Source: a virus
Taxonomy: Duplodnaviria; Heunggongvirae; Uroviricota; Caudoviricetes
Direction: 5' to 3' (one strand)
IMG/VR virus record: IMGVR_UViG_2850784384_000004
DNA length: 37,979 nucleotides
In this document: piece after piece, positions 24,703-29,560 of the stretch
Position numbering within the stretch: position 1 is the stretch's first letter
Layout: the number at the start of each line of letters is the position of its first letter
Program-made: the position numbers and the translations under genes
Notes under the pieces: generated by a model
What the model was told of the DNA's origin: nothing
Seen by the model: the letters and a program-made list of their open reading frames with translations, nothing else
The model's database searches: none

Positions 24703-24745
24703 TGAGGTGTACTGGCAATAGCGGACACTACCATTTGTTCTTTTT

Positions 24746-25564
24746 TTAAGCAGCCATCTGATGATATTTTTCCCTGAAGGCTGCCGGGGAGATATTCCCC
24801 AGACGAGAGTGACGACGCTGACGATTGTAGAAAATCTCAATGTATTCCCGTATTACTGAGATGGCTTCATCCCGGTTATTAAAACGATAGTGGCTCAGGC
24901 TCTCATTTTTCAGCGTTCCCCAGAAGCTTTCCATCGGAGCGTTGTCGTAACAGTTACCTTTACGCGACATTGATGTTTTCAGACCAGACTGCTCCTGTAT
25001 GACCCGGTAATCGTATGCGCAGTACTGTGAACCTCGATCAGAGTGGTGGATTAGCCCGGCAGGTGGGCGCTGGCTCCTGAGCGCCATAAACAGGGCTTTA
25101 CCTGTCAGCTCTTTTGTCATGCGCTCTCCCATGGCGTAGCCGACAATTTCACACGTATAAACATCTTTGATGCCAGCGAGGTACAACCATCCCTCCTGTG
25201 TGGCAACATACGTCAGGTCCGCCACCCAGACCTGATTTGGTGCTGTAGGAGCGAACGTCTGGTTCAGCAGATTTGGCGCAACTGGCAGATTGTGGTTCGG
25301 GTTCGTAGTCGCTCTGAACTTGCGTTTCTGCTTACAGCGTAGCCTCAGCTCCTTACGAAGACGTGCCAGTCGGTCACGACCAACGATGATGCCATTCTCT
25401 GCCAGCTCCGTCTGGAGCCGCCGGGTTCCATATGTTTCGCGAGTGCGGATATGTGCCACCTTAATCTCCAGTTTTAGCCGCTCATCACTTTGTTTTCTGT
25501 CTGAGGGTTCATGCTGTACCCAGTTGTAATAACCGCTCCTGGATACACCAAATACCTGACACAT
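24746..25564 (-). CDS. IS600 transposase OrfB
   Basis: Identical to copy 1. Confidence 0.9.
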   Translation of the reverse strand: MCQVFGVSRSGYYNWVQHEPSDRKQSDERLKLEIKVAHIRTRETYGTRRLQTELAENGIIVGRDRLARLRKELRLRCKQKRKFRATTNPNHNLPVAPNLLNQTFAPTAPNQVWVADLTYVATQEGWLYLAGIKDVYTCEIVGYAMGERMTKELTGKALFMALRSQRPPAGLIHHSDRGSQYCAYDYRVIQEQSGLKTSMSRKGNCYDNAPMESFWGTLKNESLSHYRFNNRDEAISVIREYIEIFYNRQRRHSRLGNISPAAFREKYHQMAA

Positions 25565-25599
25565 CGCTTCAATGGGAAATTGTTGTCGCCATTGTTCGA

Positions 25600-25902
25600 T
25601 TAACGCGTATTTTTCAGCGACTCCTGTGCAAAATACGCTGTTGCTTTTTTTAATATATCTCGCTCAAGGCGAGCTTCATTTAACGCCTTACGCAGTTGCA
25701 GAATTTCAGATTCCAGTTCAGCCACCGTGCGGGAACCAGGAGTACCGAGCCCTTTTCTGGCGGCGGTAACCCATTGTCCTAAAGTGCCTTCAGGAAGAGA
25801 TAATCGGGAAGCGCCTTCACTGATCGAAAGTTGATTTTCAAGAACCGTTCTGACAGCTTCGGCTTTGAACTCTTTAGAGTAACGTTGGGTTTTTCTGCTC
25901 AT
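25600..25902 (-). CDS. IS600 OrfA
   Basis: Identical to copy 1. Confidence 0.9.
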   Translation of the reverse strand: MSRKTQRYSKEFKAEAVRTVLENQLSISEGASRLSLPEGTLGQWVTAARKGLGTPGSRTVAELESEILQLRKALNEARLERDILKKATAYFAQESLKNTR

Positions 25903-26180
25903 TATTAGCTCCTTCTGATGCCATTCTATTTCAGGAAGGAGTGTCCGTTAAACTCAGGCTACCTCACTGGTTATGGGTGATCGGGGAGAGAGTTTCAACA
26001 GAGATTTGAGTGGTCATAACGATAACTCCGTACATTTGGAAATTATCGCCACCGACGACGCCAATCGAACTGGTGGCGAACTGTGCAGGGTTGGCGTAAC
26101 CGGGTACGGAAACCGGCGAGCCTTTCGGCTCCCCCACACAGCCCGCCATAAATCGCGAATGTGACTGTGCAAACGATATG

Positions 26181-26201
26181 AAAAAAGACGCGGGCGCGTC
26201 T
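26181..26201 (-). terminator. intrinsic terminator downstream of late promoter (tR-prime-like)
   Basis: Minus strand: AGACGC-GCCC-GCGTCT followed by UUUUUU. Confidence 0.55.
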
Positions 26202-26263
26202 CATATCGCTCCGTAAACATCCGGGACGCCAATCCCGACGCCAGATTTTGCTGGCGCGTGAGG

Positions 26264-26293
26264 AATATAGCCCCGGATAACAGATTGAGTCAA
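26264..26293 (-). promoter_or_regulatory. late promoter pR-prime-like (TTGACT-18 bp-TATATT) overlapping Q stop codon
   Basis: Strong -35/-10 directly 3-prime of Q, as in lambdoid late regulatory regions. Confidence 0.5.
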
Positions 26294-26844
26294 CAAACGG
26301 TTTTTAGATCCCCGGAAGAGAATGCATCACGCATCGGTAGATAGAGCATATATTCAGCAAGATTTAGCCATACATCTACCCGACTGCAGCACGTCCGGAA
26401 ACACCACTCAGGGTGTGCGTCATTCAGCAATTCAGCCATTTTACGCTTAGTCATCCCCCGCCCTTCATACCGTTGCCGGAGGACACTAATCAATCCAGGA
26501 TGCTCTGCCAGCACCTCACTTATGACTCTATCAATACATAACGCCTCTGCATCAGTACAATGCGCCAGCCAGGTCTTTTGCTTGCCATTGATCATCTCTC
26601 GCAAAAACGCTTCCAGCTCAGGTTTCTCTATTCCCGCTTTTTTCATCCTGCGCAGGGCTTCATTGACGGCTGTTTTCGTCAATTTTTTGGATGCCAGCAA
26701 CTGGTTAAACATATTTCCCGTCTTACCGCCGCCAATATACGACCAGCGCCCCCACATGCGCAGTTTTCCCTGAATCCAGACACTTTCCAGCGTGGTGAGA
26801 CGAAGGTGTTCCCCGCTTTTGCCTGTATTTGTTGGGTAAATCAT
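26290..26844 (-). CDS. phage antitermination protein Q-like
   Basis: Position at end of nin-like region followed by promoter and terminator; family call from recalled motifs; start set at internal Met (MIYPTN...) abutting upstream gene. Confidence 0.55.
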   Translation of the reverse strand: MIYPTNTGKSGEHLRLTTLESVWIQGKLRMWGRWSYIGGGKTGNMFNQLLASKKLTKTAVNEALRRMKKAGIEKPELEAFLREMINGKQKTWLAHCTDAEALCIDRVISEVLAEHPGLISVLRQRYEGRGMTKRKMAELLNDAHPEWCFRTCCSRVDVWLNLAEYMLYLPMRDAFSSGDLKTVC

Positions 26845-27131
26845 AAATAACCTTCCTTTCTCCAGATTTCTTGTGTGCGAAAAACACCTTCTGCATGCAT
26901 CAGGCGTAATTCTTCTTTGGTGTAATCGCTGGTTTTTACCCGCCCGTCGATTAAATCGTGGCATGAGCTACAGGCAATCGCTGCCTGCATATCGTGTGGT
27001 TTTGTCGCTGTTCCGCACGTCCCCGCCAGCCTGTAATGCGCCAGCACAGAAGTTTCGGGATTGTGATTGCAGTAGCCAGGAATTCTGACGGTGCACATCT
27101 GCCCCCGCGCCGCTTTACGTAAATCCACCAT
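26841..27131 (-). CDS. YbcO-like Cys-rich putative nuclease (DUF1364-like)
   Basis: 96 aa; MVDLRKAARGQMCTVRIPGYCNHNPETSVLAH...CSSCHDLIDG pattern as I recall for YbcO. Confidence 0.5.
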   Translation of the reverse strand: MVDLRKAARGQMCTVRIPGYCNHNPETSVLAHYRLAGTCGTATKPHDMQAAIACSSCHDLIDGRVKTSDYTKEELRLMHAEGVFRTQEIWRKEGYL

Positions 27132-27730
27132 TACGCAAACTCCAGTAACTGCGCGGCCACATTTTCGACTTCCTCCGGAGAGGAAAATTTACGGAACAGG
27201 ATCCAGTTCCACAGCACATTCAGTACAGATTTATAAACCTGCTGAAACTCGGTTTCGTCCATGTTCGCAAATGCGATAGATTTTGCCCTGCGCCCACGAC
27301 TACCATCAGGATAAATATGCTCGGTGTAAAATCCGGCCTGAATGGTTACCCACTCGCGGAAAGCGTCAAACGACTTTAGCAATGCCGTATCCCGGGTTCT
27401 GCATGTCGCAACTGTATTAAGGTATTGCTCTGCGGCATCACTCAGGGCTGGAGTGTGTTCCCGACCTACTGATTCGCACAGGTAATCAACGAAGCCTGAT
27501 ACCAGTTTTCGTTCGCGAGGCGTGATCGCCCCACCGACCGGAGTCCAGTAATCAAATCCCAGTTGCAGGAGTTTGAAAAAACGCTTGTGGAATGCGTAGT
27601 TACGCACACGCTTAAAGTCTGCGTGTATCCACTCACCTATTTTGATTTGATGCAAAAAATCGCAACTCTCCGGCGTCGCCGGGAGAAGTAATCCGGAAGA
27701 GGTTTGTTTGACCAGTTGTATATGCGCCAT
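27131..27730 (-). CDS. lambdoid nin-region protein (DUF1367-like; assignment tentative)
   Basis: 199-aa ORF contiguous with ybcO-like and Q-like genes. Confidence 0.4.
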   Translation of the reverse strand: MAHIQLVKQTSSGLLLPATPESCDFLHQIKIGEWIHADFKRVRNYAFHKRFFKLLQLGFDYWTPVGGAITPRERKLVSGFVDYLCESVGREHTPALSDAAEQYLNTVATCRTRDTALLKSFDAFREWVTIQAGFYTEHIYPDGSRGRRAKSIAFANMDETEFQQVYKSVLNVLWNWILFRKFSSPEEVENVAAQLLEFA

Positions 27731-27863: not shown

Positions 27864-28139
27864 GTGGCTTCCATTTCCATCAGATGTCCTTCCTGCTCCG
27901 CTACTGAAGGCGTGGTGCGTAACGGCAAAAGCACTGCCGGACATCAGCGCTATCTCTGCTCTCATTGCCGTAAAACATGGCAACTACAGTTCACTTACAC
28001 CGCCTCTCAGCCCGGTACGCACCAGAAAATCATTGATATGGCCATGAATGGCGTCGGATGTCGCGCCAGTGCACGCATTATGGGCGTTGGCCTCAACACG
28101 GTTTTACGTCACTTAAAAAACTCAGGCCGCAGTCGGTAA
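27864..28139 (+). CDS. insA: IS1 InsA
   Basis: 91 aa. Confidence 0.9.
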
Positions 28140-28561
28140 CCTCGCGCATACAACCGGGCAGTGATGTGATTGTCTGCGCTGAAATGGACGAACATTGGGG
28201 CTACGTCGGTGCTAAATCACGTCAGCGCTGGCTGTTTTACGCGTATGACAGGATACGGAGGACGGTTGTGGCGCACGTCTTCGGTGAACGCACTCTGGCC
28301 ACACTGGAGCGTCTTCTGAGCCTGCTGTCGGCCTTTGAGGTCGTGGTATGGATGACGGATGGCTGGCCGCTGTATGAATCACGCCTGAAGGGAAAGCTGC
28401 ACGTTATCAGCAAGCGTTACACTCAGCGCATTGAGCGACATAATCTGAATCTGAGACAACATCTGGCAAGGCTGGTACGGAAGTCACTGTCGTTCTCAAA
28501 ATCGGTGGAGCTGCATGACAAGGTCATCGGGCATTATCTGAACATAAAACACTATCAGTAA
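28058..28561 (+). CDS. insB: IS1 InsB
   Basis: 167 aa. Confidence 0.9.
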
Positions 28562-28578: not shown

Positions 28579-28830
28579 CTAACAGGATGCTCTGACTCGC
28601 AATTCATCCAGCAGTTTATCATTTCCCATAATGTCACTTACCCTCATCGGTAAAAAAATTGCCTTTCGACCATTACGATACATTATTGATTTTGGGATTT
28701 CAGGGAAGTAATCCATTTCGACTATAACTGACAGGTCATCACGACGTATGACTGCGTATTTGCTACTAAATAGTTTCTTTATTTTTTCCACGATGCCCCC
28801 AGGTTTATAAGTACAAACGGTTATATCCAC
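28579..28830 (-). CDS. hypothetical prophage protein (83 aa); stop codon lies inside the IS1 target duplication
   Basis: ORF from track; AT-rich; positioned between hok and nin genes. Confidence 0.4.
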   Translation of the reverse strand: MDITVCTYKPGGIVEKIKKLFSSKYAVIRRDDLSVIVEMDYFPEIPKSIMYRNGRKAIFLPMRVSDIMGNDKLLDELRVRASC

Positions 28831-29066: not shown

Positions 29067-29222
29067 TTACTCCTCAGGTTCGTAAGCTGTGAAGACAGCG
29101 ACCTCCGTCTGGCCGGTTCGGATTCGTACCTCGCAGAGGTCTTTCCTCGTTACCAGTGCCGTCACTATGACGGTTAAACAGATGACGATCAGGGCGATTA
29201 ACATCGCCTTTTGCTGCTTCAT
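29067..29222 (-). CDS. hok: Hok/Gef-family type I toxin (HokD-like small membrane peptide)
   Basis: MKQQKAMLIALIVICLTVIVTALVTRKDLCEVRIRTGQTEVAVFTAYEPEE, 51 aa; in-frame upstream extension to 29279 may correspond to the mok-like leader. Confidence 0.85.
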   Translation of the reverse strand: MKQQKAMLIALIVICLTVIVTALVTRKDLCEVRIRTGQTEVAVFTAYEPEE

Positions 29223-29560
29223 AGCCTGCTTCTCCTTGCCTTTCGGCACGTAAGAGGCTAACCTACATTTGTGAGACATAGATTGGGCCTCAGATTAATG
29301 TTAAGCGTCTTGCAGGACGCGTAATGTTAACTGGGGCTTTTCTCTGTCTGCCTTACAGTGGCATGCCCGAGGCAGACAGCCTCAAGCACCCGCAGCAATC
29401 TTACCGATACCGATAAGAAAACGCTATTTTTTATTGCCAGCACCTTCTATCCAGGCTAATTTATCTGCGTCAGAACGGCGCAATGCGCTCGCCTGAGATA
29501 CGTTTACTTGCCATGGTAACAACAGGTAACGGCAATTGCTGTTTCTGTTTTGTTTCCTTC

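Follow-up and report, generated by a model that had tools for sequence, protein, structure and literature searches.

A probable isrK-C4 antirepressor cassette, cut short by IS600, behind a Q21-like gene in a lambdoid prophage sequence

In the Salmonella prophage Gifsy-1, the genes antQ, isrK, orf45, anrP, and isrJ follow one another in this order, and the isrK promoter gives rise both to IsrK, a small RNA of 77 nucleotides (nt), and, by read-through of the isrK terminator, to a translationally silent isrK-orf45-anrP mRNA (PMC4825925). Acting in trans, IsrK opens the leader open reading frame (ORF), and hence the antirepressor AnrP, to translation, and expression of the antQ operon rises (PMC4825925). 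A stable RNA downstream of IsrK, STnc1160, was likened by its authors to the CI RNA of P4 (PMC4825925). In the immI region of P1 and P7, C4 RNA controls icd-ant, and the passage of PMC8201110 that cites Citron and Schuster 1990 describes C4 as a trans-acting immunity factor. Here, we analyzed positions 26,181 to 26,844 of a 37,979-nt stretch of Caudoviricetes DNA (IMG/VR record IMGVR_UViG_2850784384_000004), the whole of which we call the window. A first-pass annotation, made from the sequence alone, had described this region as an orphaned late-control unit in which a Q-like antiterminator gene, a late promoter, and a terminator were retained while the late genes were replaced by the insertion sequence IS600. 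We find that the region 26181-26293 on the minus strand, with the sequence beyond it, is very likely the 5′ part of an isrK-C4 antirepressor cassette of the Gifsy-1 isrK-orf45-anrP type, which directly follows an intact gene of the Q21 superfamily (DUF1133) and breaks off at IS600, 17 codons into the antirepressor gene, and that its promoter and terminator are most likely not a Q-responsive late unit. The element is a degraded copy of an already known, experimentally characterized kind, and the cassette type is a relative of the P1/P7 immI module c4-icd-ant.

The whole window was scanned with Rfam at gathering thresholds, and the matches given here are full length; the cassette and the Q-like gene lie on the minus strand. 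The isrK gene was matched at 26181..26257 over its entire 77-nt model (RF01394, model positions 1-77/77, 75.6 bits against a gathering threshold of 50, E about 1e-14 for the window). A c4-a1b1 element (RF03163, 52.2 bits) was matched at 26218-26270, and a C4-type antisense RNA, the equivalent of Salmonella STnc1160, at 26069..26153 (RF01695, model positions 1-87/87, 77.6 bits against a gathering threshold of 45). The three matches stand in the expected order and spacing, with E values of about 1e-14 to 1e-16, and the order of isrK (5037-5113), c4-a1b1, and C4 (5139-5222) is the same in Gifsy-1.

Promoter and terminator fit this assignment exactly. The sigma-70-like promoter TTGACT-18-TATATT (26264..26293), which agrees with the consensus at 10/12 positions, ends 7 nt before 26257 and so places +1 at position 1 of the isrK model. 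The intrinsic terminator, a hairpin followed by U6 at 26185..26202, was found by the terminator scan, the Rfam match, and the predicted fold alike. The predicted transcript of this promoter and terminator coincides base for base with IsrK, whose predicted fold consists of two 5′ hairpins, a linker, and the terminator hairpin. Two elements of the first-pass annotation were thus correctly located: the promoter does overlap the stop codon of the Q-like gene (TGA, 26292-26290, inside the -35 hexamer), and an intrinsic terminator does lie downstream of it, 55-72 nt from the transcript start. The promoter is homologous to its Gifsy-1 counterpart, TTGACA-18-TATATT, which in a lacZ transcription fusion gave 280 units, compared with 3 without the promoter (PMC4825925). 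The Gifsy-1 terminator is leaky, and read-through is documented (PMC4825925). A stable, Hfq-binding IsrK of 77 nt is known only for the Salmonella orthologue (PMC2330248; PMC4825925).

Could the promoter-like and terminator-like motifs be chance matches in decaying prophage DNA? Consensus scans taken alone are close to what chance gives, since shuffled sequence contains a similar number of sites: 2 promoters were found where 1.4 were expected, and 3 terminators where 1.2 were expected. However, the covariance-model matches run from end to end at the E values given above, hundreds of phage and prophage records contain the unit in conserved form, and the Salmonella orthologue has been characterized experimentally. 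We therefore attach practically no probability to a chance origin.

The C4-type RNA carries two recognition elements, a′ in the loop of hairpin 2 (26114-26100) and b′ in a single-stranded stretch (26101-26088). The minimum-energy fold of the window C4 is the canonical one (-45.9 kcal/mol, z = -4.6 against shuffled sequences), and it leaves the a′ loop and the single-stranded b′ exposed. Complementary sites occur both upstream and downstream of C4. Within IsrK, site b1 (GGGATTGGCGTCCC, 26223..26236), which is supported by the c4-a1b1 match and by covariation, is complementary to b′, and site a1 (GATGTTTACGGAGCG, 26207..26221, nt 37-51 of IsrK), which covaries with a′ and a2, is complementary to the a′ loop. 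Downstream of C4, b1 is repeated as the target site b2 (TCGATTGGCGTCGT, 26055..26068), followed by the target site a2 (CAAATGTACGGAGTT, 26024..26038), which overlaps the antirepressor Shine-Dalgarno sequence GGAG (26029-26026); both are supported by covariation.

The covariation sample comprised 38 cassette instances from the collected loci, corresponding to 17 distinct sequences, among which six a-types and five b-types occur in various combinations. For each a-type, a1 in IsrK and a2 at the antirepressor ribosome-binding site share a short word complementary to a′; for each b-type, b1 in hairpin 2 of IsrK and b2 just past C4 share a word complementary to b′. Cognate duplexes in the 17 cassettes are on average 3.6-6.3 kcal/mol more stable than non-cognate ones. 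The means are -9.5 versus -5.9 kcal/mol for a1:a′, -10.0 versus -5.0 for a2:a′, -15.3 versus -9.0 for b1:b′, and -9.6 versus -4.6 for b2:b′. As judged by sequence comparison, a pairing scheme of a and b sites is therefore a property of these cassettes. Helix b-I of Hershko-Shalev et al., in which the middle of IsrK pairs with the 3′ half of the C4 region, is also kept (IsrK 14-47 with transcript positions 148-185, predicted ΔG -32 kcal/mol). Whole-molecule duplex prediction between IsrK and the downstream RNA gave energies not better than those of shuffled IsrK, and the longest ungapped complementary stretch was uninformative, as shuffles reach 9-10 base pairs (bp) in about 80-90% of trials.

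The stretch between the terminator and IS600, which the first-pass annotation had left empty, thus holds the C4-type RNA gene and target sites, and it also holds the beginning of an antirepressor gene. A leader ORF equivalent to orf45 (25964..26149), with a weak Phage_ASH match, starts inside C4, is in frame with the antirepressor start, and ends at a TGA of the IS600 end. The antirepressor gene itself begins with an ATG at 26017 and is cut by IS600 after 17 codons (MTTQISVETLSPITHNQ, 25967..26017). Its assignment to the ORF6N-domain antirepressors comes from intact orthologues, namely L001 7702-8376 and AnrP of Gifsy-1. Locus L001, from Escherichia coli CFS3292, is the closest intact relative: 262 nt from the isrK start are identical, and an ORF6N antirepressor ORF of 224 amino acids (aa) follows.

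How does the window locus compare with the described systems? With Gifsy-1 it shares a Q-type gene, a promoter overlapping or abutting the stop codon of that gene, a 77-nt IsrK, a C4-like RNA lying over a leader ORF, and an antirepressor of the ORF6N type. From the -35 hexamer into the start of the antirepressor gene, DNA identity is 79.7%, and the b1/b′/b2 type is GGCGTC in both. The two differ in the a-type, which is TCACCG in Gifsy-1 and TACGGAG in the window, and in the family of the Q protein, which in Gifsy-1 is the unrelated PF06323 (Q82-type) and in the window DUF1133 (Q21-like). Moreover, the Gifsy-1 leader ORF ends at an overlapping AUGA, whereas the window leader is in frame with the antirepressor; the window antirepressor stops at codon 17, and the window lacks both isrJ and the lysis genes.

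The likeness to P1/P7 immI (a1 b1 - c4 - a2 b2 - icd - ant) and to seqA-CI-seqC of P4 lies in an antisense RNA that is excised from the transcript it controls. Like immI, the cassette has two short recognition sites, a′ and b′, and two sets of targets: a1b1 lies upstream, and a2b2 lies where ribosomes bind to a leader ORF that is coupled to ant. In both systems, a few bases that vary between phages determine specificity, and the Rfam C4 and c4-a1b1 models both match the window. Unlike in immI, a1b1 of the window lies in a separate, terminated small RNA, IsrK, which is an activator in Gifsy-1. The window antirepressor is of the ORF6N type rather than P1 Ant, and the cassette belongs to a lambdoid prophage, where it stands next to Q.

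From these likenesses, a mechanism can be proposed for the intact cassette. A strong promoter of constitutive type would start the 77-nt IsrK with its sites a1 and b1, and transcription would end at a leaky intrinsic terminator. The read-through RNA would contain the C4-type RNA, whose a′ and b′ could pair with a1/b1 and with the second copy, a2/b2. As in P1/P7 and Gifsy-1, C4, or an equivalent fold within the long transcript, would mask the ribosome-binding region and keep the antirepressor silent. Free IsrK would compete for a′ and b′, and translation of the leader ORF and the antirepressor would then open. By the same comparison, the antirepressor would inactivate the prophage repressor, and the early operon, including Q, would be switched on.

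The gene upstream of the cassette is intact and encodes a Q-like protein of 184 aa (26290..26844) that matches Pfam DUF1133 at 2.7e-108. Its match to PF06530 (Phage_antitermQ), the Q21/Q933W family (10.1101/651190), is marginal, at 27.6 bits against a cut-off of 26. Compared with the phage 21 antiterminator Q21 as a single sequence, the protein matches the Q21 structure weakly (E = 0.013, in two collinear stretches). A profile of 16 DUF1133 sequences, in contrast, matches Q21 (PDB 6P18, 6JNX) over residues 94-180 at E = 1.5e-8, and an N-terminal tryptophan-rich motif, WxxGxLxxWGxW, is matched between the two as well; in the alignment, Q21 has a 12-residue insertion that DUF1133 lacks. Because of the profile match and the N-terminal motif, we assign DUF1133, on sequence evidence, to a divergent branch of the Q21 superfamily, as distant homologues of Q21. 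The first-pass annotation was therefore right to treat the product as a relative of the Q families. An AlphaFold2 model from the 16-sequence alignment was too poor for a fold search (mean predicted local distance difference test score, pLDDT, 51.8; predicted template modeling score, pTM, 0.42), so the structural route to Q21 was dropped and the homology rests on the match of the profile to the PDB sequences. No experimental work on a DUF1133 protein came up, although no literature search was aimed at DUF1133.

If a Q-family gene is intact here, is the promoter behind it the target of Q? Alignment of the window, Gifsy-1, and VT2-Sakai shows that homology begins at the -35 hexamer and runs through IsrK, C4, b2, a2, and the antirepressor start, while the sequences upstream are unrelated. 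The cassette is preceded by a DUF1133 Q gene in the window, by a PF06323 Q gene in Gifsy-1, and by ninE in VT2-Sakai. The VT2-Sakai (Sp5) cassette, ninE-isrK-C4-orf34-ant (isrK 75.5 bits, C4 66.7 bits, ORF6N Ant), differs from that of the window in being intact and in lying in the nin region, 2.4 kilobases (kb) upstream of Q, and an identical cassette type is also found behind DUF1133 genes, for example in locus L023. The Q gene of VT2-Sakai (PF06530) has a separate promoter-like site overlapping its own stop codon, with a terminator after it. What had been read as a promoter and terminator on which Q acts is thus isrK itself, a small-RNA gene that forms the 5′ end of a mobile cassette of isrK, C4, and antirepressor, and this cassette is homologous in three contexts with unrelated upstream genes. 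In one viral contig (L020), two isrK cassettes of different a-type lie about 3.3 kb apart, at positions 825 and 4087, and one of them is upstream of a Q gene.

A different sequence appears to travel with the DUF1133 genes. In 50 of 82 DUF1133 loci there is neither isrK nor C4, and a conserved core (...TAAACTGCTTCAATTCCGGTAYGCTTCGCAAAGCTGTATCGCGAGGCGAA) lies at +17 past the Q stop codon. A terminator hairpin whose sequence varies comes next, and after it a cargo that differs between loci, for instance tRNA genes, morons, or lysis genes. The other 32 loci have isrK at +36; in 31 of these, the same core follows the antirepressor gene, at +855 to +1065, and the single cassette-bearing locus without the core in view ends 882 nt past the Q stop codon. 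Since the core is kept behind the cassette in cassette-bearing loci, the cassette behaves like an insert that has separated Q from its accompanying segment. The core measures about 75 nt (L006 4549-4660; L001 8390-8510; 78 loci), and the cargo includes a moron encoding a 189-aa membrane protein. We regard this conserved post-Q segment, identified by comparison of the loci, as a candidate Q-utilization site for DUF1133 proteins. It is probably Q's own target, deleted from the window together with the lysis and head genes.

The Q82 family offers a parallel. The isrJ promoter and transcript of Gifsy-1 (L002 5836-5947), which follow anrP, directly overlap the Q stop codon in cassette-free phages of this family, with lysis genes next; examples are Klebsiella phage ST11-VIM1phi8.1 and Escherichia phage PhiR47_2 (L087 2501-2620; L088 2501-2620). 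IsrJ, a small RNA of Salmonella, therefore resembles the short pR′ transcript expected of a Q82-type (PF06323) Q. IsrJ as a putative pR′ transcript, and DUF1133 proteins as Q21 homologues with a well-conserved candidate target segment, may be of interest to specialists.

The canonical Q-dependent late unit of lambda, 21, and 82 comprises the Q gene, pR′ with its Q-binding element, a sigma-dependent pause element, tR′, and the late genes. The arrangement in the window nevertheless resembles it, in that a strong promoter, a short transcript, and an intrinsic terminator come at once after a gene of the Q family. On this explanation, promoter and terminator would form a Q-responsive pR′-tR′ pair at which the DUF1133 Q loads and suppresses the terminator at 26202-26185, and IsrK would be a short pR′ transcript, of which lambda 6S RNA is an example. 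In a weaker form, the isrK promoter (PisrK) would have both roles in cassette-bearing prophages. The overlap of the promoter with the stop codon of a Q21-superfamily gene and the distance of the terminator from the start are in keeping with this, as is the partial terminator read-through documented in Gifsy-1 (PMC4825925). Further observations likewise weigh against our reading of the unit as part of an antirepressor cassette to which Q does not respond. In L001, PisrK is the only strong sigma-70 promoter that a simple consensus scan detects from Q to the holin gene, and in cassette-bearing prophages it could therefore have a share in late transcription. In the conserved post-Q segment no convincing promoter was found: TAAACT could plausibly serve as a -10 and TAYGCT as a -10-like element downstream, with no acceptable -35, and a consensus scan of the cassette-free loci finds only an intragenic TTGGCT-18-TATATT. 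A -10-like CAAAAT at +8 to +13 of IsrK, which is also the conserved loop of hairpin 1, could in principle cause a sigma-dependent pause. That the cassette abuts the Q stop codon in both Gifsy-1 and DUF1133 prophages could be more than an insertion hot spot. Promoter activity, terminator read-through, and C4 processing at the window locus are predicted by analogy with Gifsy-1 and P1. Finally, whole-molecule duplex energies of IsrK with its target are just ~2 standard deviations better than those of shuffled controls, and for this reason the pairing argument rests on covariation.

Against these points stand several others. Neither the promoter nor the initial transcribed region is tied to one Q family: the same promoter, spacer, and initial transcribed sequence are found behind an unrelated Q82-family Q in Gifsy-1 and behind ninE in VT2-Sakai. 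To our knowledge, each Q acts only at its own promoter. For this reason, and because Q proteins of different families have no detectable sequence similarity (10.1101/651190), a shared Q loading site is unlikely. Cassette-free DUF1133 genes are directly followed by the other conserved segment and its terminator, which elsewhere are retained behind the cassette, and in cassette-free relatives of Gifsy-1 it is isrJ, not isrK, that abuts Q. The binding element of Q21 consists of 8-bp direct repeats (10.1101/651190), and by inspection no such repeat is visible between -40 and -1 of the isrK promoter. Moreover, the homologous a1b1-C4 modules of P1/P7 work without any Q, and in intact relatives an antirepressor operon, rather than late genes, follows the unit. 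Altogether, we judge it improbable that PisrK and its terminator respond to Q, in either the full or the weaker form.

A combination of the two functions can be imagined where the cassette sits between Q and Q's original target, though we regard it as very doubtful. PisrK would there have been co-opted as a Q-loading site, with CAAAAT (+8 to +13) as the pause element and IsrK doubling as a pR′-type transcript, and Q would drive read-through into the antirepressor gene. If this were so, a positive feedback loop would result, in which the antirepressor turns on the early operon, the early operon supplies Q, and Q yields more antirepressor and late gene expression. The remnant in the window would then be an orphaned half of the loop.

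With the cassette favored over a Q-responsive unit, what would be annotated as an orphan late promoter resolves into three genes beside an intact Q21-like gene, namely isrK, a gene for a C4-type antisense RNA, and an antirepressor gene that is truncated. The isrK-C4-antirepressor cassette is a mobile module, which has come to lie repeatedly in the nin region or in the interval that separates Q from its own target. Finding a promoter and terminator immediately after a Q gene is not enough, in general, to call them pR′-tR′.

The downstream boundary of the remnant is the third IS600 copy (24703..25966, minus strand, 1264 bp), which starts 215 bp past the terminator, as first annotated. It has no 3-bp target-site duplication (CAG versus GTA). 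Directly past it lie a fragment matching a region of relatives annotated as tail fiber or tail protein (with no Pfam match of its own), then a tail-fiber assembly gene and a tail-fiber N-terminal fragment. We rejected a simple insertion of IS600, given the missing target duplication and flanks that are non-contiguous prophage regions; for the same reasons, the junction indicates an IS-mediated deletion or rearrangement. The window has no homologue of the L001 sequence beyond the junction, that is, of the rest of the antirepressor gene, the conserved post-Q segment, the holin, the endolysin, or the terminase. The earlier statement that no lysis or structural genes follow is therefore accurate for lysis, head, and terminase genes homologous to those of L001, but not for the pieces of the tail-fiber region that stand directly past IS600. 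Similarly, IS600 did remove downstream DNA, yet it was the antirepressor operon, and not late genes, that came right after the terminator. Four IS600 copies are present in the window (488-1753, 11688-12951, 24703-25966, and 36757-37979), with 99.8-100% identity; three have the same orientation, and the other is inverted and runs off the end of the window. They provide ample substrate for IS-mediated deletions.

Since the antirepressor output is gone, IsrK and C4 RNA are the most that the cassette can still produce. Have these been kept because they are useful? The two RNAs might act in trans on host mRNAs, or they might confer immunity like that of P1 immI against incoming or resident phages with an antirepressor cassette of the same a/b specificity. 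From the promoter through IsrK and C4 to the two sets of target sites, identity to the intact relative is 100%, while the Q gene is noticeably more diverged: an 884-nt query is 94.8% identical to this relative overall and 99.7% over its last 384 nt, and the Q-like protein is identical to its E. coli CFS3292 orthologue at 177/185 aligned positions (184 residues and the stop). Trans action would also have precedents in the immunity function of C4 in P1/P7, as given in the part of PMC8201110 that cites Citron and Schuster 1990, and in IsrK of Salmonella (PMC4825925). However, the sequence identity may simply reflect a recent deletion, and the window contains just one further cassette (7200-7815), whose a and b types both differ from those of this one. 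We consider a retained function in trans unlikely.

This second isrK-C4 cassette occupies window positions 7183-7815 on the plus strand, with a promoter at about 7200-7229, isrK at 7234-7310, and C4 at 7335-7422. Its specificity is different (a: CACTCGAG; b: GTGGAAA), its antirepressor ORF has a Rha domain, and no Q gene lies upstream. The Rha-type ORF seems to break near 7780-7815, and an ORF at 7778-8071 continues in another frame; from about 8068 an IS element follows, which we take to be IS2. Cross-talk between the two cassettes of the window was considered and set aside as unlikely, because a and b types both differ and predicted cross-pairing is weak. The predicted pairing of IsrK copy 2 with the copy 1 target amounts to -22.9 kcal/mol, compared with -33.0 kcal/mol for the cognate pair.

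Upstream of the Q-like gene and in the same orientation lie genes for a YbcO nuclease (26841-27131) and a DUF1367 protein (27131-27730), both assigned with Pfam, and the gene order DUF1367-YbcO-Q is common to L001, L005, and L006. Between the DUF1367-YbcO-Q genes and the rem/hokD region are plus-strand ORFs at 27864-28561, presumably of IS1 from their InsA/InsB pattern. These IS1-like ORFs probably separate Q from its early promoter.

Other features of the window were noted in passing. A CssrB small RNA (2631-2813, minus strand, Rfam 151.6 bits) lies beside a gene for a 571-aa leucine-rich-repeat protein (2942-4657, plus strand), which is probably an effector of the IpaH family. Taken with IS600, these features suggest that the window derives from a Shigella chromosome. 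An ALIL pseudoknot (15148-15264, plus strand, RF01497, 120 bits) is the frameshift element of an IS3-family insertion sequence. A hok/sok type I toxin-antitoxin locus lies at 29067-29391 on the minus strand (Rfam sok, 118 bits), with a Hok-like ORF at 29067-29279, and a Rem-like ORF is present at 28579-28830. Related prophages of the Qin-like kind (L001) have these elements in the same order. Locus L005 (PP818812.1, 'Actinobacillus phage vB_Apl-pPE4') is 92-93% identical to this E. coli/Shigella prophage region, hok/sok included, and its host assignment looks doubtful.

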